From: an uncultured Actinomycetes bacterium
GTDB lineage: Bacteria; Actinomycetota; Actinomycetes; S36-B12; CAIYMF01
Direction of reading: 5' to 3'
Length of the DNA: 32,000 nt
NCBI GenBank assembly: GCA_963843975.1
Contig: CAWJMG010000003.1
Span: forward strand, 2,700,001-2,732,000
Shown: positions 12,809 to 32,000 of the stretch, piece by piece
Layout of the letters: each line of letters starts with the position of its first letter
How positions within the stretch are numbered: position 1 is the stretch's first letter
Position numbers and translations under genes: made by a program
The notes under the pieces: generated by a model
Database searches by the model: none
Seen by the model: the letters and a program-made list of their open reading frames with translations, nothing else
Told to the model about the DNA's origin: nothing

Positions 12809-13519
12809 GTGCCCATGCGGATCCTTGTCGTCGACGACGAGGTCAACCTCGCCAAGACCCTCAAGCAGGGCCTGGAGTCGGAGGGGTTCACCGTCGACAT
12901 CGCCCACAACGGGGAGGATGCGCTGTGGGCCGCAACGGAGCAGGGGTACGACCTCGTCGTCCTGGATCTCATGCTCCCTAAGCTCAACGGCTACAAGGTC
13001 GTGGAACGGCTGCGTCACCGGGGGGTGTGGACGCCGATCCTCATGCTCACGGCCAAGGACGGCGAGTACGACCAGGCGGACGCGCTCGACCTCGGTGCGG
13101 ATGACTACCTCACGAAGCCGTTCAGCTTCGTCGTCCTCCTGGCACGGATCCGGGCCCTGTTGCGGCGCATCGTGGCCGAGCGGCCGACTGTGCTAGCCGT
13201 CGGTGATCTGACGCTCGATCCCGTGACGTGCGCCGTGGCCCGAAGAGGAAACGCCGTCGAGCTGACCCCACGCGAGTTCGCGCTCCTGGAGTACCTGATG
13301 CGTAACCCAGGAAAGGTGGTCACCAAGAGTGAGCTCATCGACCACGTCTGGGATACGAACTTCGACGGACCTCTGAACGTCGTCGAGGTCTACGTCGGGT
13401 ACCTCCGCAAGAAGGTAGACGCGCCCTTCGACGTGCAGTCCATCGTCACCGTCCGCGGGTTCGGCTACCGGTTGGATGCTGTCGGCGAGCCCTCAGCCGC
13501 CAACGACAGCACCACCTGA
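12809..13519 (+). CDS. OmpR/PhoB-family response regulator (paralog 1)
   Basis: MPMRILVVDDE...LDLMLPKLNGY...LMLTAKDGEYDQADALDLGADDYLTKPFSFVVLLARIRALLRR...LTPREFALLEYLM...TVRGFGYRL. The alternative ATG is 12815. The 3' end overlaps the convergent kinase gene by 55 nt. Confidence 0.92.
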   Translation: MPMRILVVDDEVNLAKTLKQGLESEGFTVDIAHNGEDALWAATEQGYDLVVLDLMLPKLNGYKVVERLRHRGVWTPILMLTAKDGEYDQADALDLGADDYLTKPFSFVVLLARIRALLRRIVAERPTVLAVGDLTLDPVTCAVARRGNAVELTPREFALLEYLMRNPGKVVTKSELIDHVWDTNFDGPLNVVEVYVGYLRKKVDAPFDVQSIVTVRGFGYRLDAVGEPSAANDSTT

Positions 13520-14868
13520 GCGCCACCCAGATCGCTCGCGCCGATCAATGCGTCACCTCCATGGATCCGCGCGATCTGGCGGACGATGGCAAGTCCAAGA
13601 CCGCTACCGCCTTCGTCGCGGGAGCGGTGCTCGTCGAGCCTCACGAAGCGGTTGAACACGTCCGACCGCAACTCCGCGGGGATCCCGGGCCCGTCATCCT
13701 CAACGGTCAGCACGACCGTCGTGCCCTGGCTCCGGGACGTCAGTCGGATCGTCGACGATGCGAACCTGGCTGCATTGTCCACGAGGTTGCGCACGGCCTG
13801 GGCCACCTGGTCCGGGTCCGCGTGGACCCGGGCCGGCTCGACATCCAGCTGAACGACCAGTGCGGACTGGGCCCGTAGCCGGCGCGCCTCCGCCATGAGG
13901 ATGTCGTCGACGTCGACGTCCACCCGTCGCTTCGCCAGCGAGTGCTCCTCGGATCGGGCCAGCAGCAGGAGGTCTCCCACCAGTCGGGTCATCCGTTCGA
14001 CCTCGTCGTCGAGCACCCGCTGGGCGTCAGGTCCGATGTCACCGCCCCTCCGGCCGGCTACGTCCAACGACGCGCGCATCGAGGCCAGCGGGCTGCGCAG
14101 CTCATGACTGGCATCGGCCACGAACTGCCTCTGACTCGCCATGGCACTCTCTAGCCGGGCCAGCATCAGGTTCATCGTGACCGCCAGGCGTTGGATCTCG
14201 TCGTTCGCCGGAGGAACGGGTACGCGCTCATCCAGTTCTCCGCCGCCGATGCTGTCGACTCGCTGACGTATCCGATCGACGCTTGCCAACGATCGACCGA
14301 CCGCAGCCCAGGTGACCGCTCCGACGGCGACGAGCAGCAGTGGGGCGATGAGCAAGAGCGCCACCACGACGACGCCGACGGTCCTCTGCACGGGCACGAG
14401 CGACTGGGCGGCCACGACCGTCACGGGGCCACCCGTGCCTCCGGCCGCCACAGCCACCACCTGGTAGTCGGCGCCATCGACGAAGTCCAGCGGGGTCTGG
14501 ACCGACACCGGGCCCGACCCCGCCGCGATCGGTGCCACGATCGCCGCTTCGTCGGCGATGCTCGACGACGACACGAGAACGGCACCGGACGCATCGAGGA
14601 CTTGCACGATCGTTGTGTCACCGGGCGCCGCACCCGCCGTCACGAGGGCTGCGTCGACGCCCCCGGCTTCGATCTGAGCCGCGATGTCCTTCGCGCGCTG
14701 CTCGGTAGCCTGTTGGACCGACGACGACAGCGCGAACTGCAGCACCATCACCAAGCCGGCGCCAGCGACGACCAGGGCCACGAGCACCACCACGACGGAC
14801 GCCGCCGTCGAACGGGTACGAGCGCCCCGGCGGGCCCACCAGCCTGACGCGCCCGCTCTCAGGCTCAT
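13465..14868 (-). CDS. Sensor histidine kinase (paralog 1), convergent with its presumed regulator
   Basis: TM1 (VVVVLVALVVAGAGLVMVL), a roughly 130-aa extracytoplasmic segment (IVQVLDASGAVLVSSS...), TM2, HAMP. H-box FVADASHELRSPLASM, N-box VRNLVDNAARFA, then DDGPGI and GGSGLGLAIV. Confidence 0.92.
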   Translation of the reverse strand: MSLRAGASGWWARRGARTRSTAASVVVVLVALVVAGAGLVMVLQFALSSSVQQATEQRAKDIAAQIEAGGVDAALVTAGAAPGDTTIVQVLDASGAVLVSSSSIADEAAIVAPIAAGSGPVSVQTPLDFVDGADYQVVAVAAGGTGGPVTVVAAQSLVPVQRTVGVVVVALLLIAPLLLVAVGAVTWAAVGRSLASVDRIRQRVDSIGGGELDERVPVPPANDEIQRLAVTMNLMLARLESAMASQRQFVADASHELRSPLASMRASLDVAGRRGGDIGPDAQRVLDDEVERMTRLVGDLLLLARSEEHSLAKRRVDVDVDDILMAEARRLRAQSALVVQLDVEPARVHADPDQVAQAVRNLVDNAARFASSTIRLTSRSQGTTVVLTVEDDGPGIPAELRSDVFNRFVRLDEHRSRDEGGSGLGLAIVRQIARIHGGDALIGASDLGGAQVVLSLAAEGSPTASNR

Positions 14869-14936
14869 GCACGCGAGGATAGGCCCCGCCCCTGAGAGGA
14901 TGCTGAGCGCCGCCAGCGGCGGACGTGCCGCCCCTG

Positions 14937-14954
14937 GCTCTCAGCGGACTCTTG
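14937..14954 (+). promoter_or_regulatory. Phased direct repeats CTCTCAGcggaCTCTTGG upstream of acidic-protein gene 1
   Basis: CTCT[CT][AT]G at 14937 and 14948 (11-bp phase), 85 and 74 nt upstream of ATG 15022, in the HK/acidic-protein divergent intergenic region. CTCTTGGgtGGATC resembles CTCTTGGacGGATC of the 28560 site (gene orientation). Confidence 0.4.
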
Positions 14955-15021
14955 GGTGGATCCCTGCACTGTGTTCGAGAGCGGCTGCACCGCAGCCGCC
15001 GGACACAGAAGGGTCTTCCCC

Positions 15022-15438
15022 ATGCGCATCACCAGGAAGCACACCATCGCCGCAGCCGCCGCCGGAACCGTCATCGCACTGATCGGCAGTTCCGGGATCG
15101 CCATGGCCGCCGGCCAGCCGGCCCCCACCAGGACCGCAGGCACAATCGCCGTCCCGGCGGCAGCTTCGCCGGGCACCCCGTCGGCCGGCGACGAGAGCGC
15201 CGCCGAAGGCATCGACGACGGCACCAACCAGGGCCTGGACGCCAACACCAACGAGCCGGGCCACCAGGACGCCAGCTCCACCGGCGACGCGGCCGAGGGC
15301 CCTGAGTCCGGTGCAGAGGGAGCCGAGTCCGCCACCGACGACGGGACCGACAAGGGCCCGGACGCCAACCCCAACGAGCAGGGGCACCAGGACGCTGGCA
15401 GCGCGGGCGACGCCACTGACACCCAGAGCGACAACTAG
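15022..15438 (+). CDS. Small secreted hyper-acidic low-complexity protein, copy 1 (unrecognised family)
   Basis: ATG 15022 inside track ORF 14956..15438. Signal peptide MRITRKHTIAAAAAGTVIALIGSSGIAMA. Mature part has 22 D+E vs 2 K+R (hand count). Internal repeat DDGTNQGLDANTNEPGHQDASSTGDA / DDGTDKGPDANPNEQGHQDAGSAGDA (DNA 15214-15290 vs 15337-15413). Confidence 0.7.
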   Translation: MRITRKHTIAAAAAGTVIALIGSSGIAMAAGQPAPTRTAGTIAVPAAASPGTPSAGDESAAEGIDDGTNQGLDANTNEPGHQDASSTGDAAEGPESGAEGAESATDDGTDKGPDANPNEQGHQDAGSAGDATDTQSDN

Positions 15439-15445
15439 CAGATCA

Positions 15446-15485
15446 GCGCGTGTGGGCCACGGGACTCGCCGTGGCCCACACGCGC
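15446..15485. terminator. 17-bp perfect stem-loop between convergent genes
   Basis: GCGCGTGTGGGCCACGG (15446-15462), loop GACTCG, CCGTGGCCCACACGCGC (15469-15485). It lies between the stop of the acidic-protein gene (15438) and the stop of the minus-strand kinase (15621). Confidence 0.7.
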
Positions 15486-15620
15486 GCGCCTGATGCCCGG
15501 TTGGACCCGGGCGACCATCGCCAGGATGCGCAGCACCAGCCGCGCGGGCCGTGACTCGCAGTGAGACGCCGCCAGGACGCACGGAGGCCGGTCCCCGCTA
15601 CGGGTCAGGCCGTCGGACGC

Positions 15621-16976
15621 TCAGCCGGAGGGCCGCGCCTGCGCAAGGCGCAGCAGGAAGTGCCCGCCGGGGCCGGTCAGGGCGCTCGCCTCTCCTCCGC
15701 TGCGCCGCGCGAAGGCTGCGACGATGGAGAGGCCAAGCCCGCTGCCACCCGAGTCCCGCGCGCGGGCGTCGTCGAGTCGGGTGAAGCGGTCGAAGACCCG
15801 TTCGGTGTCAGGCTGTGACAGGCCCGGTCCGTCGTCGTCCACCGCCACGACTACCCACCCTGCGTCGACCCCCACGGTGAGCGTGACCGTCGTCCTCGCG
15901 TGCCTGACCGCATTGCTGAGCAGGTTGCGGACGGCCCGGTGCAGCGCACGCTCGTCTGCGAGGGCAGTGCAGTCGGAGCCAAGAAGGGTGACACGCACCT
16001 CGGGCCGGATCCGAGCAGCCTGGCTGACCTCGTCGACGAGCGCGGCCGGGAGCAGCACCGGCGCCGGCACGAAGGGCTCCCCCGCGTCGGCGCGAGCCAG
16101 CACCAGCATGTCGTCCACGAGCGAGCTCAGGCGTGCGACATCGGCGAGCGCACCGGCCGTGATGGTCGGGTCCGCCCTGGCCATGGACGCGAGCTCGAGG
16201 TCGAGCTGCAGAGTGGCGAGAGGAGTCCGCAGCTCATGCCCCGCGTCGGCTACGAACCGACGCGTCGCGTTCTGTTGGTCGTGGAGGCGGTCGAGGAGCT
16301 CGTTGAGGGTGACAGCGAGACGCTCGATCTCGTCGCCGGTGCTCGGCACCGTGAGTCGTCCAGCCTCGAGGCTGCGTAGACGGTCGGCCTCGCTGGTCAG
16401 CTCGGACACGGCGGCCAGCGCCGTACCCACCCCTCTCGTGACGAACAGCACGACCAACGCGGTCACGGACAGAACGGCGGCGGCCAGCGCCCCCAGGACG
16501 GCGAGACGTGTGGCCTCACTGCTCTCGTCGTTGCGGGCCGCGCAGACGACATACGTCTGGCCATCGGTCGTGACCGGGGTCGCGCGGACCCGGAATGTTC
16601 CCGTGAGGCCGGGCTGGTCGAGGTCGATGCTCTGGGCGCGCGCACCCGCAGGCACAGCGCAGATCCGCGCACCGGGGTCAACGCCGGGTGTGGTGGCGAC
16701 CGGGGTCCCCTCCTGATCGACGACCTGCACCACGACGGGGTCGGCCGGGTCCAGGGCAGGGAGCTGGATCGGATCCCCGGACGACGGCGGGTTCTCCTCA
16801 ACCTGCGCGATGACATCGCTGACGCTCGCGTCGAGCGCAGAATCCAGGGAGCGGACTCCGGCCGCCTGCACCAGCACCAGTGCGAGAGCAGCAATCAGGG
16901 CAGACCCGAGCAGGACCGCCGCGCCGGCGGCGACAGAGGCGCGCGCCCGCAGCGACCGCGGTCGGAGCCGGCTCAC
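15621..16976 (-). CDS. Sensor histidine kinase (paralog 3)
   Basis: This is the C-terminal 451 codons of track ORF 15621..17807. The GTG start (complement of 16974-16976) overlaps the stop of the upstream ORF (GTGA). Same architecture as the other kinases: VVVQVVDQEGTPVATT sensor segment, H-box FVADAGHELRTPLATL, N-box VRNLLSNAVRHA, DDDGPGL, GGSGLGLSIV. Confidence 0.88.
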   Translation of the reverse strand: MSRLRPRSLRARASVAAGAAVLLGSALIAALALVLVQAAGVRSLDSALDASVSDVIAQVEENPPSSGDPIQLPALDPADPVVVQVVDQEGTPVATTPGVDPGARICAVPAGARAQSIDLDQPGLTGTFRVRATPVTTDGQTYVVCAARNDESSEATRLAVLGALAAAVLSVTALVVLFVTRGVGTALAAVSELTSEADRLRSLEAGRLTVPSTGDEIERLAVTLNELLDRLHDQQNATRRFVADAGHELRTPLATLQLDLELASMARADPTITAGALADVARLSSLVDDMLVLARADAGEPFVPAPVLLPAALVDEVSQAARIRPEVRVTLLGSDCTALADERALHRAVRNLLSNAVRHARTTVTLTVGVDAGWVVVAVDDDGPGLSQPDTERVFDRFTRLDDARARDSGGSGLGLSIVAAFARRSGGEASALTGPGGHFLLRLAQARPSG

Positions 16977-17596
16977 GTGGTGTCCGTGGCGAGCCGGTAG
17001 CCGACGTTGCGGACGGTCTCGATCAGACCGGCGCCGACCTTGCGCCGCAGCCCAGCGACGCACACCTCCACCAGGTTCGGTGCAGCGTACGGCTCCAGCC
17101 ACACGTCCTCGAGGAGGGCCTGCTTGGCTACGACCTGATCCGGTCGGGCGGCGAGGTAGGCGACGACGTCGTACTCGCGGGCGGTGAGGTCCAGCTCGAC
17201 CCCGTCGAGCCAGGCGCGGCGCCGCGTCGGCTCCAGCCTGACCGGTCCCGACTGCTGCACAGTTGCGGCGCGGTCGATGTGGGTCAGCCTGTTGATCCGG
17301 CAGCGGACCAGCACCGCGTGGACGGTCGAGGCCGGCCTGCCCAGCTCCCCGGCGATCTGGACCGGGCCCAGCCGCTTCTTCCACCGCAGGTGCACGATCC
17401 GACGCTTGACCGGCTCCGGGGTCCGGTTCGGGGAGCGGTGGGGACGGCTGGAACGGTCGATCATCGCCGCGGCCGTCGGGGCCTGACCGGAGCCCGCGAG
17501 CAGGTCCCGATAGCGGTCCGACCACCGCTTGGCGGTCGGCCTGGACACCCGGAAGCAGTCCGCCGCCGCGGCGACCGGCAAGTCCTCCTCCACCAC
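16973..17596 (-). pseudogene. Chimeric ORF: IS481-type transposase N-terminal HTH fused in frame to the OmpR-type winged-helix domain of a truncated response regulator
   Basis: Residues 1 to about 112 (EEDLPVAAAADCFRVSRPTAKRWSDRYR...MIDRSSRPHRSPNRTPEPVKRRIVHLRWKKRLGPVQIAGELGRPASTVHAVLVRCRINRLTHIDRA) match the N-terminal HTH region of IS481-family transposases. Residues about 118-207 (VRLEPTRRRAWLDGVELDLTAREYDVVAYLAARP...NLVEVCVAGLRRKV...TVRNVGYRL) are a Trans_reg_C effector domain. There is no receiver domain and no DDE domain. Junction near 17245-17265. Confidence 0.75.
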
Positions 17597-17786
17597 CAGC
17601 CGACTCGTCAGAAGGTCGTGCTGGCGGGTTCCTTTCCGATTCGACTCTGACCTGCTCCTGGTCTTCTGGCAAACGGCAGCGACGCCATCGCAGACACCGA
17701 GAACCCCTCTCGCCTCCTCCTACTTTGCCGTCCGGGGCGGGTCGACCGAGGGGGCGCCTCTGCTCGTGGCCCGACTCGTTCGCAAA
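17250..17786 (-). mobile_element. IS481-family remnant (left end and 5' part of transposase gene only)
   Basis: See the chimeric ORF. The same frame stays open upstream of 17596 (..NRKGTRQHDLLTSRLVVEEDLPV..) and resembles a decayed IS481 N-terminus without an ATG. The catalytic region is absent. Boundaries are approximate. Confidence 0.55.
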
Positions 17787-17892
17787 TCGACGCAATGACC
17801 TCTCCATGTAGCGACGGTGGTTTCAGCGAGACTGCTGCAACCGGTTGAGCGAGTGGCACAATCCCGGGTAGGGCAAGCAGACAGGGGGCGTC

Positions 17893-18207
17893 ATGGCGCA
17901 GCAGACGGTGGCCACCGCGGGCGCGACCGCGTTGGGCGGTCGGGCGTTGATGGTCGTCGGGGTGGTCGCGGCGTTGCTGGGCGTGTTCGCCTGGGGATGG
18001 GACGTGGACCCGGGCGCCGGCAAGGCGTGGCTGGTCGTGGGTGCGGTGTCCGTGATCGTCGGCTGGTGGGCCGCCCGGTCGGTCGTCAGTTCCGCCGTGT
18101 CGCGCGTGCTCCTCGTGGTCGCGGTGGTGCTCGCGGTCGTCGTGGTCATCGACGCGGTGCAACTCGTGCAGCTGTCCAACCTGCAGCGTGGCGGTTCCCT
18201 CGCCTGA
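17893..18207 (+). CDS. Small membrane protein (3 predicted TM), passenger ORF inside the IS1595 element
   Basis: ATG 17893 follows AGGGGG. GC3 is very high in this frame. Hydrophobic spans: ALMVVGVVAALLGVFAW, AWLVVGAVSVIVGWWAA, VLLVVAVVLAVVVVIDAV. Convergent with the transposase gene. No recognisable family. Confidence 0.55.
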   Translation: MAQQTVATAGATALGGRALMVVGVVAALLGVFAWGWDVDPGAGKAWLVVGAVSVIVGWWAARSVVSSAVSRVLLVVAVVLAVVVVIDAVQLVQLSNLQRGGSLA

Positions 18208-18216
18208 CCACCTTGG

Positions 18217-19288
18217 TCAGCGCACCACGCGACGCCAGGGGCGGCCGGCGTCGGGCTGGGCGAGGCTGCGTGGGTTGCTGCGCTCGGTCGGCGGCTCCGG
18301 ATGGACCTTCCGCTTCTGGCCCCCGATGGCGACGTCGGCGTAGGTGATGGGGTCGGTGCGCACGGCCTGCTCGAGGAGCCGGTAGAACAGAAGGCCTGGC
18401 TTGCGAGCGTGCCTGCGGTTGAACCGGAACTCGAACTCCCAGAGGTACTCGGTCATGTGCTCGCGGCTGACCGAGCCCTGGTGGGTGCCGTGCAGCCACC
18501 GCTTGAGCTGCGCCTGGACGCGGGAGACGGCCGGATACAAGTCGTGGGCCTTGCTGCCTGAGCGCTTGGTGTTGATGGCCACGTGCTCGAAGCCCGCGAG
18601 CGCCTTGGTGAGCGCGCCGTAGGCATCGGTGAGCACCCTGGTCCCGGGCTCGATGTTGTCCAGGAGCACGGCGTTGATGCTCTCCGCCTTGTAGTTCGGC
18701 ATCACCACCAGCCGCGCTCGACCGATGCCCTTGCCAGCGCCGCCGGCTCCGGACCGACCGAGGTTCTCCGCCATCGCCAAGACGATGATGCGGTTGGAGT
18801 GCAGGGACCTGCCCGGGTATCCAGGGAGGTTGCGGCCGCCCACCGTGGTCTCGTCGACCTCGACAACGCCCGAGAAGCTTCTTGCGGTCGGGCATCACCA
18901 TCGCGCGGCGATAGCGGTGGGCCATCATCCACGCCGTCTGGTAGCTGCCCAGGCCGAGCGTGCGCTGCAGCGTCCGCGCCGACACGCCGTTGGCCCTGGC
19001 TGTCATCTCCCACGCGACCCGGAACCACACCGTCAGCGGGGTCCTCGTGCGCTGGAACAGGGTCCCCGCAGTGACCGAACTCCGCGAGCCACATGCACCG
19101 CAGTCGTAGGCACGCCCGTCAGCGCGACGCCAGCCGTGCGCGATAGAGCCGCACGACGGGCAGACGAACTCCAGGTCGCCCCAGCGCAGCCACGCAAGGT
19201 AGTCCAGGCACGCCTCGTCGTCGGGGAACCACGCCGCGAACTCCACGAGGTCGCGCGGGTACTCCTCACCGCCTACGGGATGTGCCAC
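18217..19288 (-). pseudogene. IS1595-family (ISXO2-like DDE) transposase, interrupted by a frameshift
   Basis: The N-terminal frame (track ORF 18146..19288) has the zinc ribbon (FVCPSCGS...YDCGACGS) and reads through to ...HRYRRAMVMPDRKKL. The DDE domain continues in another frame (track ORF 18217..18843), from ..SGVVEVDETTVGGRNLPGYPGRSLHSNRIIVLAMAE on to ...MTEYLWEFEFRFNRR. The shift maps to about 18869-18880, where one extra base in aagcttCtcggg fits. Confidence 0.8.
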
Positions 19289-19572: not shown

Positions 19573-20958
19573 GTGCGCCGCGGTCGGCACCGTGCTGCCG
19601 TGGTAGGCCCCCGTCCCGGGGCGAGGCTTCGCTCCACCTTTGCCGCGACGCTCGTCGTCGCGGTGGCGCTGACGATCGGCGCTGTCGGCATGGTGTTGAT
19701 CCTGCGTGCGTCGTTGACCCAGACGGTCCGGGACTCGGCGCAGCAGCGAGCCAACGACGTAGGGACTTCGGTGGCAGCGGGGGGTGCCGCCCGCGACGCG
19801 ATCGTGGTCGGCAACGTCAGTGAGCGTTCCGTCGTACAAGTGCTCGATCCTCAGGGGACTGTGCTGGTTTCCAGCCCCGAGATCGACGGCGAGCCCGCAC
19901 TGACCTCGGCGCGCCCGGCACCAGGGAGTGTCCAGGTCTCCACCCAGAGGGTCCCGGTGGCTGACCAGGAGTCGTTCGTCGTGGTGTCCCGCGGTGTTCA
20001 CACGCCAACCGGCGATGCGATCGTGGTCGTTGCGCAATCGCTAGACGCGGTGGACGCCAGCGTGACGACGGTCGAACGCCTTCTTGTCCTCGGATTCCCC
20101 GTCGTCCTCCTGGTCGTCGCCGGGTCGGTGTACTACGTCGTCGGCAGGACGCTTCGCCCGGTCGAGGAGATCCGGCGGCGGGTCGCTGCGATCAGCGCCA
20201 CGGACCTTGACATGCGGGTTCCGGTGCCGGCTGCCGACGATGAGGTGGGCCGGCTCGCCCTCACGATGAACAGGATGCTCGATCGGTTGCAGGACTCTCA
20301 GGCCACGCAGCGTCGGTTCGTCGCTGATGCCAGCCACGAGCTGCGCAGCCCGCTGGCGGCCATTCGGGCGACCGTCGAGGTGGGCCTGGAGCATCCCGGA
20401 TCGCAGCCTTGGGACGATGCTGCCCCAGCGGTTCTGGCGGAGACCGATCGGCTCAGCAGGCTGGTGGACGACCTGCTGCTCCTCGCGCGTTCCGACGAGA
20501 TCGAGAGCCCCCGAATTCATCGTGATGTCGATCTCGACGACATCATGATGATCGAGGCAGATCGCCTTGGACGGCTGGGGAAGATCGACGTCTCGGTCGA
20601 TGTCACGCCCGCGCGGGTGGCTGGCGATCGTCAGCAGCTCGAACGGCTGGTGCGCAACTTGTGCGACAACGCCGTGCGTTACGCGACCTCATCGGTCGCT
20701 CTCTCGGTCGGCATGGACGGTGCCTGGGCAGTCCTGGTCGTGCAGGACGACGGACCGGGTATCCCTGTCGCGGACCGAGATCGCGTCTTCGACCGGTTCG
20801 TACGCCTGGATCCGGCCCGGGACCGACTCTCCGGTGGCGCCGGGCTCGGCCTGGCGATTGTCTTCGAGGTGGCGCGCGCTCACGGCGGAACAGCGGCCGT
20901 GGAGGACTCGGCCTCCGGAGCACGCTTCGTTGTGCGCCTCCCCGCAATGAGGACGTGA
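19573..20958 (+). CDS. Sensor histidine kinase (paralog 2), convergent with its presumed regulator
   Basis: GTG start. TM1 (ATLVVAVALTIGAVGMVLIL), sensor segment (VVQVLDPQGTVLVSSPEI...), TM2, HAMP. H-box FVADASHELRSPLAAI, N-box VRNLCDNAVRYA, DDGPGI, GGAGLGLAIV. Clear paralog of 13465..14868. Confidence 0.92.
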   Translation: MRRGRHRAAVVGPRPGARLRSTFAATLVVAVALTIGAVGMVLILRASLTQTVRDSAQQRANDVGTSVAAGGAARDAIVVGNVSERSVVQVLDPQGTVLVSSPEIDGEPALTSARPAPGSVQVSTQRVPVADQESFVVVSRGVHTPTGDAIVVVAQSLDAVDASVTTVERLLVLGFPVVLLVVAGSVYYVVGRTLRPVEEIRRRVAAISATDLDMRVPVPAADDEVGRLALTMNRMLDRLQDSQATQRRFVADASHELRSPLAAIRATVEVGLEHPGSQPWDDAAPAVLAETDRLSRLVDDLLLLARSDEIESPRIHRDVDLDDIMMIEADRLGRLGKIDVSVDVTPARVAGDRQQLERLVRNLCDNAVRYATSSVALSVGMDGAWAVLVVQDDGPGIPVADRDRVFDRFVRLDPARDRLSGGAGLGLAIVFEVARAHGGTAAVEDSASGARFVVRLPAMRT

Positions 20959-21017: not shown

Positions 21018-21713
21018 CTACCCACCGTTGTCGGCGAGGCGGTATCCCACCCCGCGTACGGTCTCGACGCCCTGCCGGTGGAACGGCGCGTCGATCTTGC
21101 GGCGCAGGTATCCGATGTAGACCTCGACGACGTTGGAGTCTCCCTCGTAGTTCTCGTCCCACACGGCTGCGAGGATCTCGCTCTTGGTGACGACATCGCC
21201 CTTGCGGCGAAGGAGGAAGTGCAGGAGCCCGAACTCTCGAGGAGTCAAAGCAATCTGCTTGTCTGCCCGAAGCACGTGGCGACGAGCCGGATCCAGAGTG
21301 AGATCCCCGGCTTGCAGGACGGCGGGGCGTTCTGGTGCTCCGCGACGTAGCAATGCGCGCAGTCGCGCCACCAGCACGACGAAGGAGAACGGTTTCGTCA
21401 GATAGTCATCGGCCCCCAGGTCGAACGCGTCCGCCTCGTCGTGCTCGCCGTCCTTGGCCGTGAGCATGAGGACAGGCGTCCAGATCTCCTCGTCACGCAG
21501 GCTCTGACAGACCCGGTATCCGTTCAGCTTGGGCAGCATGATGTCCAGGACGATCACGTCGTAGCTGCCCTCACGGGCCATCCAGAGTCCCTGCTCACCG
21601 TCCCGAGCCACATCGACCTGGAATCCCTCGGCGGCGAGACCACGCTGTACGGCGTCGACCAGCCTCGGCTCGTCGTCGACCAGCAGCACCTTCACCCCAT
21701 CACTGTCTCTCAT
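21018..21713 (-). CDS. OmpR/PhoB-family response regulator (paralog 2)
   Basis: VKVLLVDDE...LDIMLPKLNGY...LMLTAKDGEHDEADAFDLGADDYLTKPFSFVVLVARLRALLRR...LTPREFGLLHFLL...TVRGVGYRL. Near-identical motif strings to 12809..13519. ATG 21713 overlaps the 3' end of the upstream PAP2 gene by 14 nt; the alternative GTG is 21695. Confidence 0.92.
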   Translation of the reverse strand: MRDSDGVKVLLVDDEPRLVDAVQRGLAAEGFQVDVARDGEQGLWMAREGSYDVIVLDIMLPKLNGYRVCQSLRDEEIWTPVLMLTAKDGEHDEADAFDLGADDYLTKPFSFVVLVARLRALLRRGAPERPAVLQAGDLTLDPARRHVLRADKQIALTPREFGLLHFLLRRKGDVVTKSEILAAVWDENYEGDSNVVEVYIGYLRRKIDAPFHRQGVETVRGVGYRLADNGG

Positions 21714-22629
21714 CTGACCTGAGACGACCCTGAGTTCCGATCCGTGGTTGCTGCAGTTGTTCGTTGAGTCGGGGGCCTCGTGACGATCCTGGCCGCAGCA
21801 CTGGCTCTCGCGACGGTCCCAGGAGAATCAGGGCCCCCGTTACGGCCAACACCGAGGCCAGGCCGACAACGTAGAGCGGGCTGGCCGCCTCCCCGAGCTC
21901 GGGACCTGATCGTGTCTGAGGAGCAACTGCGCCAGCGATGACCGCCGCGCCCATCACCGCCCACCAGCCCCACCCTGAGGTCGATGCGGAGAACGGAGCA
22001 CCTACCCGCGACCGTCCCACCGTGACACCCTCTGCCTCGTCCGCCGCCCGCCGGCGTACCAGTGCCGAGTGCCAGGTCACGCCGAGCAGGACTCCGCCGA
22101 CTGCGTCACTGGGGCGATGCCACCCCGCTGCCACGGTGCCGGCGGCAACGAGGCTCACCCAGGCCACGAGAGGTCCCCAGCATCGACGAGCGAGCTTCGG
22201 GTTCAACGTTGATGCCACAGCGAGAGCGAACCCGGTGGCAATAGTCGCGTGCCCGCTGGGGAACGAACCGCCAGCAACGATCTGACCGACCGGCGAAGCG
22301 CCTGCTGCAGTGGGCAGGAAGTGTTTGAGCAGCTCGGCAGACACGACGGCACCGATGACAGCTGCCGCAATCCGCACGGCGGGTCCGCGGCCCTGCCGTC
22401 GATACGTGCGCCAGCTGACTACGAGCAGACCCACGGACAGAGTGACGATCGTGATCGTCGACAAGGCCAGGCGCTCCATCACGATCAGCCCGGATCCGCT
22501 GTCCAACCGGCTGACGAGCGCCGAACGATCCGCCGCAGCGACGCGTGGGACGAACGTGATCAGCGCATAGAGGACGATCAGAGCGACGGCCGAGATCGAC
22601 GCGGTGGCGCGTCGCGAAGGGGACCTCAT
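21700..22629 (-). CDS. PAP2-superfamily membrane protein with degenerate catalytic motifs and extra C-terminal TM region
   Basis: Start taken at MRSPSRR (complement of 22627-22629) inside track ORF 21700..22680. C2 motif FPSGHA is present. C3 has only the H-x3-D part (GWHRPSDAVGG). The C1 K-x6-RP motif is not recognisable (ELLKHFLPTAAG). About 100 extra residues follow with two hydrophobic spans. Same strand as regulator 21018..21713 and overlapping it. Confidence 0.75.
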   Translation of the reverse strand: MRSPSRRATASISAVALIVLYALITFVPRVAAADRSALVSRLDSGSGLIVMERLALSTITIVTLSVGLLVVSWRTYRRQGRGPAVRIAAAVIGAVVSAELLKHFLPTAAGASPVGQIVAGGSFPSGHATIATGFALAVASTLNPKLARRCWGPLVAWVSLVAAGTVAAGWHRPSDAVGGVLLGVTWHSALVRRRAADEAEGVTVGRSRVGAPFSASTSGWGWWAVMGAAVIAGAVAPQTRSGPELGEAASPLYVVGLASVLAVTGALILLGPSREPVLRPGSSRGPRLNEQLQQPRIGTQGRLRSDERQ

Positions 22630-22737
22630 GACCACAGCCTGCGCACTGCACCTGTGGCGACGCTGAGGATCAGCCGTCAAGCCGGCTCGCGTGCGCCGGG
22701 TCTCGGGAAGTCGCGCACCGTGACGATGGATAAGGGC

Positions 22738-22756
22738 CTCTCATGCGCTCTCATGC
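22738..22756 (+). promoter_or_regulatory. Tandem direct repeat CTCTCATGCgCTCTCATGC upstream of acidic-protein gene 2
   Basis: A 9-mer repeated at 22738 and 22748 (10-bp phase), 100 and 90 nt upstream of ATG 22838. A further CTCTCAG sits at 22785-22791. Lies in the PAP2/acidic-protein divergent intergenic region. Confidence 0.4.
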
Positions 22757-22837
22757 CCACCACAGCCCCCGGGGGGCAACGTGTCTCTCAGTCCTCGACA
22801 CCCCGCTCGCGGACCCACGCATCCATCAGGAGTAACC

Positions 22838-23209
22838 ATGAAGCTCACCAAGAAGGGTGTTGCCGGAACTGTCGGCGCCGCCGCCCTGCTCGCCAGCGTC
22901 GGTCTGGGCCTGGGCTCCGTCGCGCAGGCCGCCCCGGCCACCTCGACGATCCTGCCGGCCGTCGCGGCCGTCAGCGCAACCACGGCGGACGCTGAGACCG
23001 CCGACTCGGCGAAGGACACCGACTCCCTCCAGGAAGGCGACCAGACGACGCCGGACACCGGCACGGCTGCCGAGACCGAGTCGACCACGGAGTCCGCCGC
23101 CGGCAGCGAGACCGCGTCGGAGACCGGCCCGTCGGACGGGAACGACGGCGGCCACGCTGACGCCCCCGGCGCCGACGTGAACCACGAGGGCGGTGCGGAC
23201 GAGAAGTAG
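22838..23209 (+). CDS. Small secreted hyper-acidic low-complexity protein, copy 2 (unrecognised family)
   Basis: ATG 22838 lies 6 nt after CAGGAG, inside track ORF 22781..23209. Signal peptide MKLTKKGVAGTVGAAALLASVGLGLGSVAQA. Mature part has 20 D+E vs 2 K (hand count), with T/S/E/D repeats and the end GNDGGHADAPGADVNHEGGADEK. Confidence 0.7.
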   Translation: MKLTKKGVAGTVGAAALLASVGLGLGSVAQAAPATSTILPAVAAVSATTADAETADSAKDTDSLQEGDQTTPDTGTAAETESTTESAAGSETASETGPSDGNDGGHADAPGADVNHEGGADEK

Positions 23210-23217
23210 CCCGCCCC

Positions 23218-23251
23218 GGACGGGACGTCGCCACCAGGCGACGTCCCGTCC
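23218..23251 (+). terminator. 15-bp perfect stem-loop after acidic-protein gene 2
   Basis: GGACGGGACGTCGCC (23218-23232), loop ACCA, GGCGACGTCCCGTCC (23237-23251), 9 nt after the stop. Confidence 0.65.
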
Positions 23252-26287: not shown

Positions 26288-27139
26288 ATGACCTCCTCCC
26301 CCAGCACTTCCCTTGCGACGCGTCAGTTGCTGAACAAGGTCCCCGAGATCACCGTGGTGTTCTGGGTCATCAAGATCCTGTGCACCACGGTCGGGGAGAC
26401 CTTCGCCGACCTGCTCAACGAGAAGCTGGGCCTAGGGCTCACCCTGACGACGTACGTCATGGGGACGTTCCTGGCGCTGATGCTGATCGTGCAGTTCTCA
26501 TACCGCCGCTACGTGCCCTCGGTGTACTGGACCGTCGTGGTGCTGCTCAGCGTCGTCGGCACGCTGATCACCGACAACATGACCGACAACTTCGGCATAC
26601 CGCTGGCGACGTCGACGTTGCTCTTCGCTGCCGCTCTCGCTGTCACGTTCGTGGTCTGGTACGCCGTCGAAGGAACCCTGTCGATCCACAGCATCACCTC
26701 GATCCGGCGCGAGGTCTTCTACTGGCTCACAATCCTGTTCACCTTCGCCCTGGGCACCGCCGCCGGCGACCTGGTCGGGGAGAAGTTCGGCCTGGGCTAC
26801 CTGTGGTCCGTCGTGCTGTGGGGGTCGCTGATCACGGTCATCGCGGTGGCGCACTCCCGGTTCGCCCTCAACGCTGTCCTGGCGTTCTGGTCCGCCTACA
26901 TCCTCACCCGCCCGCTGGGTGCCTCGATCGGGGACCTGCTGTCCCAGAAGCCGGTCGACGGCGGACTCGGCCTGGGCATCCTGAAGATCAGCGTCGTGTT
27001 CCTGCTGACCATCGCTGCGCTGGTCGGCTACCTCACCAGGACCCGCGCGGACGTCACCGAGTACCACCTCTCACCCGAGGACGACGCTCTCTTGGACCAG
27101 CAGGACACCACCGCGGCTCCTGCGCCCCGCATCGCATGA
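26288..27139 (+). CDS. COG4705-like polytopic membrane protein with four internal repeats
   Basis: KVPEITVVFWVIKILCTTVGETFADLL is the hallmark N-terminus of this family. The unit [FY]W-x(8-10)-G-x(3-4)-D recurs four times: VVFWVIKILCTTVGETFAD, SVYWTVVVLLSVVGTLITD, VFYWLTILFTFALGTAAGD, LAFWSAYILTRPLGASIGD. Stop overlaps the next start (ATGA 27136-27139). Confidence 0.8.
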   Translation: MTSSPSTSLATRQLLNKVPEITVVFWVIKILCTTVGETFADLLNEKLGLGLTLTTYVMGTFLALMLIVQFSYRRYVPSVYWTVVVLLSVVGTLITDNMTDNFGIPLATSTLLFAAALAVTFVVWYAVEGTLSIHSITSIRREVFYWLTILFTFALGTAAGDLVGEKFGLGYLWSVVLWGSLITVIAVAHSRFALNAVLAFWSAYILTRPLGASIGDLLSQKPVDGGLGLGILKISVVFLLTIAALVGYLTRTRADVTEYHLSPEDDALLDQQDTTAAPAPRIA

Positions 27140-27828
27140 GCGGCCCAACTGCCGTTGCAGGCCATGTCCGGCTGCAGCCACAGGCGCTGCTCGAGCACGC
27201 ACGCCGGGCATGGCCCGTCCTGCTTGTCGCGTCTTCGGCTGCGGTGATCCTCGCGGGACTCACGGACGCCGTCGGCGAGCACGACGGCGTGACCGCAGTC
27301 GACCGGCCTGTCGCCGCCTGGTTCGCCGCGCACCGAACCTTCGCGCAGGGCAGCCTCGGGCTCCAGCTCGCGCACGCCACCTCACCTGCCGTCCTGATCG
27401 CACTGGTGCTGCTCACCGCCGTCGTCCTGCTGCGACGAGGCCTTCGCAGCGAAGCGCTCCTTCTCACCGGTGCGACGGTGGTCGCCTACGCCTCCGGTGC
27501 GGTGCTCAAGTTCGGCGAGCACCGTGCGCGGCCGTCGTCGCCAGTGAACCTGGCGCCTGAGGGTGAGCCGTCGTACCCATCGGGTCACGTCCTGGTCGTG
27601 GCCGTGATCGCCTTCACCGTCGTCGCCCTGGCGTGGTCGCACCTGTCCCGTGCCGGCCGGGTGACGGCCGTGGCCGTCGCCTCGGTCGCTGTCGGGGGCA
27701 TCGCCCTGGACAGGCTGGTCGTGGGGGCGCACTGGCTCACCGACCTTGCCGGGTCTCTCGCCTTGGCCGTGGTCATCGTGAGCGTCGTCATCGCAGCGCT
27801 GCGATTGCTGCCAGAAAAGGCTGCGTAG
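27136..27828 (+). CDS. PAP2-family phosphatase (canonical motifs)
   Basis: This is the last 230 codons of track ORF 26380..27828. C1 KFGEHRARP, C2 YPSGH, C3 DRLVVGAHWLTD (the complete K-x6-RP / PSGH / [SD]R-x5-H-x3-D signature), with about 6 TM. Translationally coupled to the COG4705-like gene. Confidence 0.87.
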   Translation: MSGPTAVAGHVRLQPQALLEHARRAWPVLLVASSAAVILAGLTDAVGEHDGVTAVDRPVAAWFAAHRTFAQGSLGLQLAHATSPAVLIALVLLTAVVLLRRGLRSEALLLTGATVVAYASGAVLKFGEHRARPSSPVNLAPEGEPSYPSGHVLVVAVIAFTVVALAWSHLSRAGRVTAVAVASVAVGGIALDRLVVGAHWLTDLAGSLALAVVIVSVVIAALRLLPEKAA

Positions 27829-28587: not shown

Positions 28588-29016
28588 ACCGAATATCGAC
28601 GCCCACGACACCTCGCGGACGTCGAGCACGGCCTGGGTCCGGCGGCCAGGCGCCAGCCCGCCGTTCGAACGAGCGAGATGTGGCTGGGGGCCGGGGGGCG
28701 TGACGAGGCCACTTTGTCCAGATGACGGTCGGTGGTCCGAGTGACGCGCGAGCAGGCGAGTGGTTCTCGTCGCCGATCTGCCACCCGTCGGGGCTGATCT
28801 ACATCCCGGGCATGCAGAGTGGAACGGCGTCACCGAGCGGCCCCATCATTCTCATCCCCTCGACCCAACGATCACGATCGTCAGCGCGGACTCCTCTGGC
28901 TCCAAGGAGCGGCGGGCCGCTGACGGCGCGCTGTCGAGGCCGTACGCCGCGCATCTTGGAGGTGTGGATGATCTCGCGCCCAGCGCGCCCAGCGCGCCTG
29001 GTGGTGCTGGGTCGTG

Positions 29017-32000
29017 ATGTCTTTGGCGCGTATGTCCGCGGGCGCGGGGTACCAGTACCTGTTGCGCCACACCGCGTGTGGTGATGTGCAACGAGACCCT
29101 TCGACGCCGTTGACGGCGTACTACACCGCGTCGGGCTATCCGCCCGGCTCCTGGTACGGCGCCGGGCTTGCCGTCCTCGGGATCGCGTCCGGCGCAGCCG
29201 TGACCGAGGTAGGCATGGCCCGTCTCTACGGCCACGGCCAGCACCCCACTAGCGGAACGCCGCTGGGCCGCCCCTACTTGGCGTTCCGCAGCCAGGCGCA
29301 GCGCATCGCCGACTCCGTCGCGGCGCTGCCGGAGTCGATGACGGACTCCGCCCGGGCTGCGGCGGTCGAGGCGATCACCCGGTTGGAGGCCGCACGGAGG
29401 CCGCGTGTCGCGGTTGCCGGGTTCGATCTCACGTTCACTTCACCGAAGTCGGCCAGCGTGCTGTGGGCGTTGGCCGACCCGGACGTTCAGGCCCTCGTGG
29501 TCGCCGCGCATCGGGCTGCGGTCCGCGACGCGCTCGCGTTCCTGGAGGACCGGGCGCTGTTCACCAGGATCGGGCACAACTCGATCGCCCAAGTCCCGAC
29601 CCGCGGGATGGTCGCTGCCCTGTTCGATCATTGGGACACCCGCACCGGCGACCCGAACCTGCACACCCATGTCGTGGTGGCGAACAAGGTCCAGGGCCTC
29701 GATGGGGTGTGGCGGTCCCTGGACTCCCGGGCCCTGCACCACGCCGCGGTCGCGGTGTCCGAGCTCTACGACAACCTGCTCGCCGACCACCTCACGACCG
29801 CGCTCGACCAGAACACCGGCCACCGGGCTGGGTCCTCGTGGGGGTGGCGGGATCGCGGACCGCGGCGCACCCCGGCCTTCGAGCTCGACGCCGTTCCCGA
29901 CGACCTACTCACCGAGTTCTCAACCCGATCGGCGGCGATCGCCACCGCGATGACCGACGCCCTGGTCGACTTCCACGCCGCGCACGGACGCGGACCGAAC
30001 CGGGTGGAGACGACCCGTCTGCGTCAGCAGCTGACCACCGCGACCCGCCCCGCCAAGACGATGCGCCCGCTGCCCGAGCTAATGGCATGGTGGCGCGAGC
30101 GAGCCCGGCGCCTGCTGCGCCGCGCCCCGCACCCGCTCCTCGCCCCCGCGTGGAGCAGCCAGCACGCGACACCGGCGTTCACCGCCGCCATGGGTCGTAG
30201 TCGCGTCGGAGTCCGTCACGATACTGACGGAGTCGCCGGGCCAGTCCGTCACGGACTCCGTCACGGGACCCTGACCAGCGACGATACCTCAGCCGTCGGC
30301 AGCCAAGGCTGGCGCGGCACGGCACGATCCGGCGGGATGCTCCGCAGCCGGCTGCACCCACGCTCCGCCCACACAGCCCGTCCGAGCGTCTCCGACGACG
30401 TTGTCGAGCACCTCGCCGCAGTAGCCCTGGACGCGGTACTGGCGAGGCGCTCGACGTGGACCCGGTGGAACCTGCTCGCCGAGGCCGCGCGCGCCACCCG
30501 CGGTCTGCGGCTACCGAGCGCGGCGGAGCGGATCGCCTTGCACGACCGCGTCTGCGCGACCGCCCTTGCCGGCTGCATGCCGTTGACCGCGCCGGACCGG
30601 TGGACCGTGCCGGAGGGGTGGCGGCGCCCCGACGGCACCACAGTGTTCGACCGACCCGACGAGGATCGGTTTAGCCACAGGGTCATCCTGGACGCGGAGG
30701 CCCGCCTGCTGGCCGCCGCCGCCGACCAGCACGCCCCCGGCGTGGACGAAACGGTCGCCCGCAGCGCAGCGGTCAAGGTCCAGTCGCCGCGCCACCCCGG
30801 GGGTCGCCACGTGCGCCTCGCCAGCGATCAGGTCGACGCCGTCATCGGCATCGCCACCTCGCGGCGGCTCCTGGATGTCCTGGTCGGTCCGGCGGGGACC
30901 GGGAAGACCACGACCCTGCGCGCCCTGCGCACCGCGTGGGAGAACGTGCACGGGCCCGGCACGGTGCTCGGGCTGGCACCATCGGCGGCTGCGGCGCACG
31001 AGCTCGCCGACGCCCTCGGCGTAGCGTGCGAGAACACCGCGAAGTGGCTGCACGAGTCCACCGGCCCCGCCGCCCAGCAACGCGCCGCGGTGCGCGCGGG
31101 CCTGCTCGAACGGCGCACCGCCGCGACCAGCGCGGGCGACGCGCGCACGGTGCGGCGGGTCGACACCGCGCTGGCCCGACTCGACGCGCAGCAGGACCGG
31201 TGGCGGCTGCGGCCCGGGACGCTGCTCGTCGTCGACGAGGCGTCCCTGGCCGGCACACTGGCCCTCGACGACCTGGCCGCCCAGGCTGCTGCCGCGGGGG
31301 CCAAGCTGCTGCTCGTCGGCGACCACCACCAGCTCGGCGCCGTCGACGCGGGCGGCGCGTTCGCCCTGCTCGCCGCCACCGGCGCCGCGCACCGGCTGCG
31401 GTCGCTGTGGAGGTTCACCCACCGGTGGGAGGCCCACGCCACCCGGGCCCTGCGCGAGGGGCATCCGGGCGCCCTTGCGACCTACGACCGTCACGGCCGC
31501 ATCCATGAGGGAGGGCCCTTGGACGTCCTCGACGCTGCCTACTCCGCGTGGGCGAGCGACAGCCGCGGCGGCGCGTCGGCGCTGCTGCTCGCCGCCGATG
31601 GCGCGACGGTCGCCGCTCTCAACCACCGTGCCCGCACCGACCGCGTCGCCGCCGGTCTCGTCGACGATACGACCACCGTCCGCCTCGCCGATGGACTGCA
31701 AGCCGGCACCGGGGACCTCGTCGTCACGCGCCGCAACGACCGCCGCCTGGCCACCGCCGCGGGCGGCCATGTCCGCAACGGCACCCGCTGGACGCTCACG
31801 ACCATCCACGCAGACGGCAGCGCCGACCTCGCGGCGCAGTCCGGCACCGACCCAGAAGGCACCGGCCAGGACCGTGTTCGTGTGCCTGCCGACTACGTGC
31901 GCCGCCACCTCGAGCTCGGCTACGCCACCACCATCCATCGGGCCCAAGGACTCACCGTCGACCACACCCATCTCCTGGCCACCGAGGGCATGACCCGCGA
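29017..32000 (+). CDS. MobF-family (TrwC/TraA-like) conjugative relaxase with C-terminal RecD-like helicase, 3' end outside window
   Basis: Hand translation of frame 1 from ATG 29017 is open to base 32000, so it is absent from the ORF track because it has no stop. MSLARMSAGAGYQYLLRHTACGD...LTAYYTASGYPPGSWYGAGL (Tyr motif), FDHWDTRTGDPNLHTHVVVANKVQ (3-His motif), Walker A VLVGPAGTGKTT (about 30877-30912), LLVVDEASL, and GYATTIHRAQGLTVD near the end. Confidence 0.92.
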   Translation, partial: MSLARMSAGAGYQYLLRHTACGDVQRDPSTPLTAYYTASGYPPGSWYGAGLAVLGIASGAAVTEVGMARLYGHGQHPTSGTPLGRPYLAFRSQAQRIADSVAALPESMTDSARAAAVEAITRLEAARRPRVAVAGFDLTFTSPKSASVLWALADPDVQALVVAAHRAAVRDALAFLEDRALFTRIGHNSIAQVPTRGMVAALFDHWDTRTGDPNLHTHVVVANKVQGLDGVWRSLDSRALHHAAVAVSELYDNLLADHLTTALDQNTGHRAGSSWGWRDRGPRRTPAFELDAVPDDLLTEFSTRSAAIATAMTDALVDFHAAHGRGPNRVETTRLRQQLTTATRPAKTMRPLPELMAWWRERARRLLRRAPHPLLAPAWSSQHATPAFTAAMGRSRVGVRHDTDGVAGPVRHGLRHGTLTSDDTSAVGSQGWRGTARSGGMLRSRLHPRSAHTARPSVSDDVVEHLAAVALDAVLARRSTWTRWNLLAEAARATRGLRLPSAAERIALHDRVCATALAGCMPLTAPDRWTVPEGWRRPDGTTVFDRPDEDRFSHRVILDAEARLLAAAADQHAPGVDETVARSAAVKVQSPRHPGGRHVRLASDQVDAVIGIATSRRLLDVLVGPAGTGKTTTLRALRTAWENVHGPGTVLGLAPSAAAAHELADALGVACENTAKWLHESTGPAAQQRAAVRAGLLERRTAATSAGDARTVRRVDTALARLDAQQDRWRLRPGTLLVVDEASLAGTLALDDLAAQAAAAGAKLLLVGDHHQLGAVDAGGAFALLAATGAAHRLRSLWRFTHRWEAHATRALREGHPGALATYDRHGRIHEGGPLDVLDAAYSAWASDSRGGASALLLAADGATVAALNHRARTDRVAAGLVDDTTTVRLADGLQAGTGDLVVTRRNDRRLATAAGGHVRNGTRWTLTTIHADGSADLAAQSGTDPEGTGQDRVRVPADYVRRHLELGYATTIHRAQGLTVDHTHLLATEGMTR

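Follow-up and report, generated by a model that had tools for sequence, protein, structure and literature searches.

We analysed a 32,000-nt stretch of DNA from an uncultured Actinomycetes bacterium (contig CAWJMG010000003.1, positions 2,700,001 to 2,732,000; hereafter the window) around a small gene whose product is an acidic, secreted protein. The gene is divergent from a two-gene operon, in which a PAP2-superfamily membrane protein is encoded ahead of an OmpR-type response regulator; the gene for a sensor histidine kinase converges on that of the regulator (Table 1). An initial annotation had described the small gene as copy 2 of three acidic-protein genes in the window, had placed the three in one family and had proposed co-regulation of copy 2 with PAP2 and the two-component system. 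We report that copy 2 belongs to a family of its own and that this family, unlike any other neighbouring gene, accompanies a particular clade of OmpR-type regulator and PDC-sensor kinase.

The open reading frame (ORF) runs from an ATG at 22838 to a TAG at 23207-23209 and holds 123 codons. The ORF, the CAGGAG ribosome-binding site, the SVAQA/AP signal peptide (the slash marks the predicted cleavage site) and the C-terminus (GNDGGHADAPGADVNHEGGADEK) were all present as first annotated, as were the 208-bp divergent spacer between the ATG of the PAP2 gene at 22629 and that of the acidic-protein gene (22630-22837) and the overlap of the PAP2 and regulator genes. This overlap is 14 nt (PAP2 stop at 21700, regulator start at 21713), and the two genes are translationally coupled. 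The excess of acidic residues was confirmed for the mature protein, the 92 residues of which include 20 D+E, 2 K+R, 2 His, no Cys and no Met; only six are bulky and hydrophobic. The signal peptide consists of MKLTKK, a hydrophobic core and SVAQA/AP, and inspection of its sequence revealed neither a lipobox nor a twin-arginine motif. The G+C content at third codon positions (GC3) was 0.85, and comparison with three orthologues gave ratios of non-synonymous to synonymous substitution (dN/dS) of 0.18-0.50, indicating purifying selection. Given these values, together with hundreds of full-length homologues, we conclude that the ORF is a real gene.

The strong hairpin noted downstream of the gene was also confirmed, with a z-score computed against 200 shuffles (Table 1). 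Scans for sigma-70 promoters and for terminators with a U-tail found nothing, as expected for a high-GC actinobacterium; the hairpin escapes a simple terminator scan because it has no U-tail. The AlphaFold2 model of the protein, based on a 48-sequence alignment, contained zero secondary structure and was of low confidence (predicted local distance difference test score, pLDDT, 59.5; predicted template modelling score, pTM, 0.14), with a slight rise across the C-terminal motif, motif B. By this prediction, the protein is intrinsically disordered and carries two short linear motifs.

Table 1. Features of the acidic-protein locus, in window coordinates.
Feature	Coordinates	Strand	Basis and remarks
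Sensor histidine kinase (transmembrane helix, PDC-like periplasmic domain, transmembrane helix, HAMP, HisKA, HATPase)	19573..20958	+	Pfam, structural model; convergent with regulator
OmpR-type response regulator	21018..21713	-	Pfam Response_reg and Trans_reg_C
PAP2-superfamily membrane protein	21700..22629	-	Pfam PAP2, E = 2.7e-11; start ATG 22629, stop 21700
Direct repeat TCTCATgcgcTCTCAT, candidate OmpR-type regulator site	22739..22754	+	99-84 nt before acidic-gene ATG; about 110-125 nt from PAP2 ATG
Ribosome-binding site cAGGAG	22827..22832	+	Read from sequence; ATG 5 nt downstream
Acidic-protein gene	22838..23209	+	ORF, family HMM 97 bits, homologues, dN/dS; product 123 aa, secreted, predicted disordered
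Sec signal peptide, residues 1-31, predicted cleavage AQA/AP	22838..22930	+	Sequence features; aligns with signal peptides of all family members
Motif A, residues 60-73, DTDSLQEGDQTTPD	23015..23056	+	Family consensus P-D-T-D-N-V-Q-Q-G-D-Q-T-T-P-D
Motif B, residues 98-123, PSDGNDGGHADAPGADVNHEGGADEK, C-terminal His/Asp motif	23129..23206	+	Invariant columns in alignments A1 to A3
Terminator-like hairpin	23218..23251	+	Perfect 15-bp stem, 4-nt loop, no U-tail; -35 kcal/mol, z = -6.8

A first word-indexed search with copy 2 returned 16 relatives. A profile hidden Markov model (HMM) built from these was scored against 1.84 billion representatives, and the family so defined comprised 564 clusters (50% identity) at an expectation value (E) of <= 1e-3, and 163 at E <= 1e-10. 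Nearly all members were 95-135 aa long and were matched by the profile end to end; copy 2, with its Sec signal peptide and 123 residues, lies within this range and aligned to the profile over its full length (97 bits). The layout was constant over 241 sequences: a signal peptide, an Ala/Pro/Thr-rich linker, motif A, a variable Ser/Thr/Glu/Ala spacer and motif B.

Motif A, which follows the signal peptide, reads PDTDNVQQGDQTTPD in the family and is separated from motif B by the acidic variable spacer, the distance between the motifs being 25-94 residues (median 40). Copy 2 carries the pattern D-x-D-x-x-Q-x-G-D-Q-T-T-P-D at residues 60-73. All 226 instances of motif A have the Q, G and D, but they were selected with the pattern Q.GD[QTN], which itself imposes these residues. 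The second Q, which this pattern requires only loosely, was found in 225 of the 226, and the pattern left the flanking columns free. Motif B, with the consensus S-D-G-(P/N)-(G/D)-G-G-H-A-D-P-x-G-x-x-V-(D/N)-H-x-x-x-G-x-E, lies at the extreme C-terminus and was found in 227 of the 241 sequences; its GGH starts 18-20 residues from the end in 225 of these. G104, G105, H106, D108 and G111 were invariant in alignments A1 to A3. Copy 2 represents the NDGGHAD...VNHEGGxxEK subtype (G104 G105 H106 A D108 ... H116 ... E122 K123), with GGH 20 residues from the end. Some proteins contain two full motif units (L057, from Cryobacterium sp. PH31-AA6, and P0027, P0054 and P0062), and by this comparison the unit is a module that has undergone repeated duplication.

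Neither Pfam nor NCBIfam gave a match above noise for copy 2 and eight canonical family members, a search of PDB sequences with the family profile returned 0 hits, and the isolates' members are named 'hypothetical protein' in RefSeq (WP_354576675.1, WP_055490932.1). EF-hand, DxDxDG and RTX calcium motifs were considered as identities of motifs A and B and rejected, as the spacing of ligand residues does not fit. A C-terminal sorting signal was rejected as well, as there is no hydrophobic segment. In the libraries and literature searched, the family, its motifs and its disorder are undescribed; the general arrangement, in which a two-component system is accompanied by a small extracytoplasmic protein, is already known.

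The distribution of the family was assessed by a species-level scan (one genome per species) with a family alignment restricted to members with an exact GDQTTPD. There were at least 600 pattern matches, and 149 were confirmed among the matches listed. Hosts among these listed matches were Actinomycetes, Acidimicrobiia, Thermoleophilia, Chloroflexota (Limnocylindria) and Dormibacterota, and included the isolates Streptomyces sp. TP-A0356, Cryobacterium sp. PH31-AA6 and Frigoribacterium sp. UYMn621. Three separate loci matched in Cryobacterium sp. PH31-AA6, and a family ORF was confirmed in two. The family is patchy: it was found in 16 of 401 sampled genomes of the phylum, and within the window's genus copy 2 itself turned up in only 3 of 24 further genomes. 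A tblastn search of 72,556 plasmids with a canonical family member gave no match.

The genomic context was examined in the best 80 loci, selected solely by their match to the family; 78 contain a family ORF. In 73 of the 78, a gene for a regulator, of the OmpR type, or a kinase lay within 600 bp of the family gene, and the same pattern was seen on three metagenome contigs. For comparison, the window's genome encodes 20 OmpR-type regulators in 4.19 Mb, from which we estimate that roughly 2% of positions would lie so close to one by chance. The association was maintained through four gene orders: the family gene was divergent from the regulator gene in 29 loci, followed regulator and kinase on the same strand in 27, preceded both in 9 and converged on the kinase gene in 6. 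No other conserved neighbour emerged among 140 flanking proteins, in which the commonest Pfam family, ABC_tran, occurred in seven; metal pumps, oxidases and metal-resistance genes were not enriched among them. In the window, the regulator gene is 1.1 kb from the acidic-protein gene, with only PAP2 inserted between, and in L016 the two are directly adjacent. These data demonstrate that the acidic-protein gene is the one gene that accompanies this clade of two-component system, and the conservation of gene context, which the initial annotation had proposed as a check, held for the two-component system.

The sensor kinases that adjoin family genes are themselves related. Residues 1-200 of the window kinase could be aligned, essentially over their full length, with the sensor region of 46 of the 72 adjacent kinases (E from 1e-96 to 1e-6, with one case of 0.02), and by these alignments the kinases are one clade. 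The sensor region was modelled as a single PDC/PAS-like domain between two transmembrane helices (pLDDT 79, pTM 0.63). Its best structural match in the PDB was the extracellular domain of WalK, while a sequence search of the PDB gave one chance-level match only. No periplasmic column of these kinases had His, Cys or Met in at least 25% of the sequences. The best NCBIfam match of the window regulator was cztR_silR_copR, at 241 bits against a cut-off of 279.

The spacer upstream of the acidic-protein gene contains a direct repeat (22739-22754) that was kept in G009, L015 and L016, where the neighbouring bases diverge. Phased direct repeats at such a distance are the usual arrangement for activators of the OmpR/PhoB type. 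Similar repeats with a 10-11-bp phase lie 60-100 nt upstream of distant members, for example TCTCATcggggTCTTAG, even where the gene follows the kinase gene. TCTCA occurred between -150 and -40 in 33 of the 78 family loci, as compared with 4.9% of 1409 control windows, and a phased pair in 18% as compared with 0.35%, although the significance of such counts is overstated, since the patterns were derived post hoc from the same upstream regions. Within the window, a first, narrower pattern matched copy 2 only; when widened afterwards to TCTYDK-N4-5-TCTYDK, it occurred four times as against 0.59 expected, and each of the four occurrences immediately precedes one of the three acidic genes, in sense orientation. 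Another motif, ATGTGAACG...CACA, was observed upstream in 13 of the 78 loci, mostly where the gene follows the kinase gene; it lay 85-115 nt upstream of the family gene in L019, L022, L028, L031, L039, L051, L080 and others, and may be the operator of a sister subclade of regulators.

PAP2 adjoins the acidic-protein gene only in the window, G009 and L015, with a further PAP2 match in L080 at a distance of 3.1 kb; it was absent from L016, where the regulator gene is directly divergent from the acidic-protein gene, and from 76 of the 78 family loci. Because it is confined in this way, PAP2 looks like a recent, lineage-specific insertion into the spacer between regulator and acidic-protein genes. 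Its translation retains PSGH and HxxxD and lacks the conserved Arg of both KX6RP and SRX5H, with the same changes in G009, so that its description as 'degenerate' was fair; the protein may be non-catalytic or altered in specificity. A second PAP2 in the window (27136-27828) is canonical. The proposed co-regulation with PAP2 and the two-component system was thus borne out in part: the link to the two-component system extends to 73 of 78 loci, and that to PAP2 is limited to the closest relatives. The acidic protein is probably a target or helper of the adjacent sensor, rather than a partner of the lipid phosphatase PAP2.

On the other side of the acidic-protein gene, beyond the hairpin, a gene for a lipoprotein polysaccharide deacetylase (PF01522; 23409-23591, forward strand) has been reduced to its first ~61 codons. 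In the relatives L015 and L016 this gene is intact (300 aa) and directly follows the acidic-protein gene. Its truncation may partly explain the ORF-poor stretch at this position.

The relation of copy 2 to copies 1 and 3 was assessed by Smith-Waterman alignment of the mature parts, with 1000 composition-preserving shuffles. Copies 1 and 2 scored 82, as compared with 62 +/- 8.8 for shuffled sequences (p = 0.022); the other pairs gave p = 0.22 (copies 1 and 3) and p = 0.26 (copies 2 and 3). A HMMER search of its own genome with copy 2 did not find copies 1 and 3 at E <= 10, and the copy-2 family HMM scored copy 1 at -3.9 bits and copy 3 at -2.1 bits. The family of copy 1 (window 15019-15438), collected separately, is defined by near-invariant GPDANPNEPGHQDA units in one or two repeats, which copy 2 lacks; hhalign of the two families aligned only 19 columns, all of them in the signal peptide. 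Neither copy 1 nor copy 3 has motif A. The assignment of the three copies to one family therefore found no support in any of these comparisons, and the composition-corrected comparison against shuffles that had been proposed with it detected no homology.

The suggested resemblance of the His-containing acidic end of copy 2 to the GHQD repeats of copy 1 fared somewhat better. The two GHQD sites were the best matches of a composition-corrected His-motif matrix, with marginal significance (p = 0.088 for the best, 0.022 for the top two), and the matrix found nothing in copy 3. Copies 1 and 2 may be very distantly linked by a G-H-x-D core. Both families are small, exported, acidic and disordered, with a paralogous kinase and regulator adjacent; they differ in that their profiles do not match outside the signal peptide, motif A is missing from the copy-1 family and its motif is not C-terminal. 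We conclude that, by sequence comparison, the three copies are analogues and not demonstrable paralogues. Functional equivalence of copies 1 and 2 is favoured by their neighbouring kinases, which share 46% identity over the whole length, including the sensor domain, and by the regulators, which share 62%.

Several further observations concern the modules in the window. Trans_reg_C matches at G000:C3:2525280-2529230 and at window 13247-16991 had identical scores and frame lengths, and the copy-1 module (regulator, kinase, acidic gene and a regulator scarred by an insertion sequence, IS) seems to be duplicated about 188 kb away, or to be an assembly repeat. DUF347 (COG4705) membrane proteins are encoded near a few such modules (L014 3174-3971; downstream in L088 and L094) and, in the window, beside copy 3 (26288-27139). 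IS remnants are present at 16973-19288, and a 995-aa open-ended ORF that runs off the window end (29014-31998, forward strand) encodes a TrwC relaxase with an AAA_30 domain. The relaxase ORF and the IS remnants suggest that the cluster of kinase/acidic-protein modules lies on or beside an integrative conjugative element, which would fit the patchy distribution within the genus.

Small extracytoplasmic proteins are known from several two-component systems. SilE and PcoE are encoded beside a two-component system of the OmpR/CusRS type and are induced by it. Within the sil silver-resistance determinant, SilE serves as a disordered metal sponge in the periplasm; like SilE and PcoE, which are small, have a signal peptide and His-containing motifs and are disordered until ligand binding (PMC5008109), the acidic protein is small, exported and His-containing, and it is predicted to be disordered. 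It has no sequence relationship to them: in place of HxxM/MxxH motifs for Ag+/Cu+ and similarity to SilE, its mature part has 0 Met, no Cys and 2 His in motifs unrelated to those of SilE, with no Pfam/NCBIfam match, and family loci lack the accompanying efflux pump or oxidase genes. In Enterobacteria, CpxP and ZraP are small periplasmic proteins encoded divergently from the cpxAR and zraSR operons, and each is under the control of its regulator and in turn modulates its kinase; ZraP binds zinc (PMC6737893). The position of the acidic-protein gene is comparable, and feedback on the kinase would be the corresponding function. CpxP, ZraP and Spy are folded helical-hairpin proteins with LTXXQ motifs, however, whereas the acidic protein matched no Pfam family and its AlphaFold2 model was helix-free.

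Among Gram-positive bacteria, YycH/YycI and LpqB are accessory proteins of the essential kinases WalK and MtrB. Their genes, like the acidic-protein gene, are kept in or beside the operon, and the model of the kinase sensor is nearest to the PDC domain of WalK. YycH/YycI and LpqB are large, folded and anchored to the membrane or by a lipid, whereas the acidic protein is about 90 aa, soluble and predicted to be disordered. In Corynebacterium glutamicum, CopR binds one repeat between copR and a divergent gene for a secreted protein (PMC3140484). This actinobacterial OmpR-type system offers a parallel for the shared-site control that we propose for the acidic-protein gene and the PAP2-regulator operon, with the difference that the cop region carries copper oxidase and ATPase genes, which family loci lack.

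Taken together, the evidence leans towards the acidic protein being a dedicated target and probable extracytoplasmic partner of the two-component system, possibly one that binds cations. We propose that the phosphorylated regulator would bind the phased TCTCAT repeats about 90 nt upstream of the acidic-protein gene and, from this shared site, would activate the gene and, in the lineage of the window, also the divergent PAP2-regulator operon. After export, the protein would remain in the wall zone, where the His/Asp motif B could bind a divalent cation, most plausibly Cu2+, Ni2+ or Zn2+. Glycines that precede a histidine favour amide-assisted metal coordination, and the segment G-G-H-x-D ... 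H ... E is a plausible site for one of these ions. The protein might then be the buffering output of the system or, as we prefer, might also report to the sensor domain of the kinase, in a three-component system. A role as partner, co-sensor or feedback modulator is favoured because conserved metal ligands are missing from the kinase sensor itself and no companion other than this protein is conserved. A more detailed form of this proposal is tentative and, taken as a whole, doubtful: the disordered protein would be the ligand-binding element of a three-component sensor in three phyla, in which GGHxD...H captures a cation or senses pH and the short motifs dock on the PDC domain, so that an unstructured secreted protein would serve as a detachable co-sensor for a histidine kinase.

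A number of observations weigh against the proposed role. The family was found in only 16 of 401 genomes, so this type of kinase can do without it. L016 and Microbacteriaceae members lack motif A, which contains no His and no obvious chemistry. The metal ligands on offer are two His and several Asp/Glu residues, the regulator and kinase both score below the heavy-metal subfamily cut-offs of NCBIfam, and the flanking genes are not enriched for metal handling. Co-inheritance is all that points to feedback on the kinase, and the post hoc origin of the repeat patterns tempers their weight as operators.

The chief competing explanation is that the protein acts purely as an output of the system, an extracellular polyanionic cation or metal sponge or wall-zone buffer of the SilE/PcoE kind that is induced by the two-component system and never touches the kinase. 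It would account for a disordered, acidic, His-containing protein encoded in a divergent or separate transcription unit with its own hairpin, downstream of operator-like repeats of the regulator type, and SilE provides a precedent (PMC5008109). Bulk binding, however, needs neither two near-invariant motifs nor a motif fixed at the C-terminus; the gene lies downstream of the kinase gene on the same strand in 27 of the 78 loci, and no efflux or oxidase genes co-occur with it. We regard this explanation as rather improbable. Were the protein no more than an ordinary low-complexity secreted protein that happens to lie beside a two-component system, its biased composition and the lack of a fold would be unsurprising; an adjacency of 94% in 78 loci, across several classes and phyla and four gene orders, and the invariant motifs make such a coincidence barely credible, and the homologue, context and motif data already contradict it.

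A secreted pro-peptide, from which the C-terminal ~22 residues would be released and sensed by the adjacent kinase in the manner of Gram-positive peptide pheromones, would fit a small exported precursor encoded beside a kinase and regulator, a conserved segment that is exactly C-terminal and a kinase with a PDC ligand-binding fold. Pheromones diversify, whereas motif B is almost identical across three phyla; two full units occur in some proteins; and neither the processing protease nor the exporter that would be expected beside precursors such as ComC, AgrD and Phr co-occurs with the family. A pheromone precursor is very unlikely in view of the near identity of the motif across phyla and the lack of co-occurring processing genes. 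The view taken in the initial annotation, that copies 1 to 3 are paralogues co-regulated with PAP2 in an envelope module of PAP2 and the two-component system, is unlikely too, if a little less so. All three copies are small, exported and acidic, TCTYDK repeats at a 10-11-bp phase precede each of them, and copies 1 and 2 adjoin paralogous kinases and regulators and have the G-H-x-D core in common, at marginal significance (p = 0.02). The similarity is not significant beyond composition, however, and motif A is missing from copies 1 and 3; among the 78 loci PAP2 is adjacent only in L015 (the L080 match being 3.1 kb away) and is absent in L016. For copy 3 this view is largely refuted already.

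The comparison of the three copies holds a lesson for annotation, in that acidic, exported, kinase-linked proteins in one locus can be from unrelated families. A known signal and a known target are lacking for the majority of two-component systems in Actinomycetota and uncultured soil phyla. One clade with a single conserved companion, which carries invariant and chemically suggestive motifs, provides an experimental handle on the signal and the target of the kinase. If the proposed feedback on the kinase is real, the acidic protein would differ, as a disordered co-sensor, from the accessory proteins so far described, which are folded.
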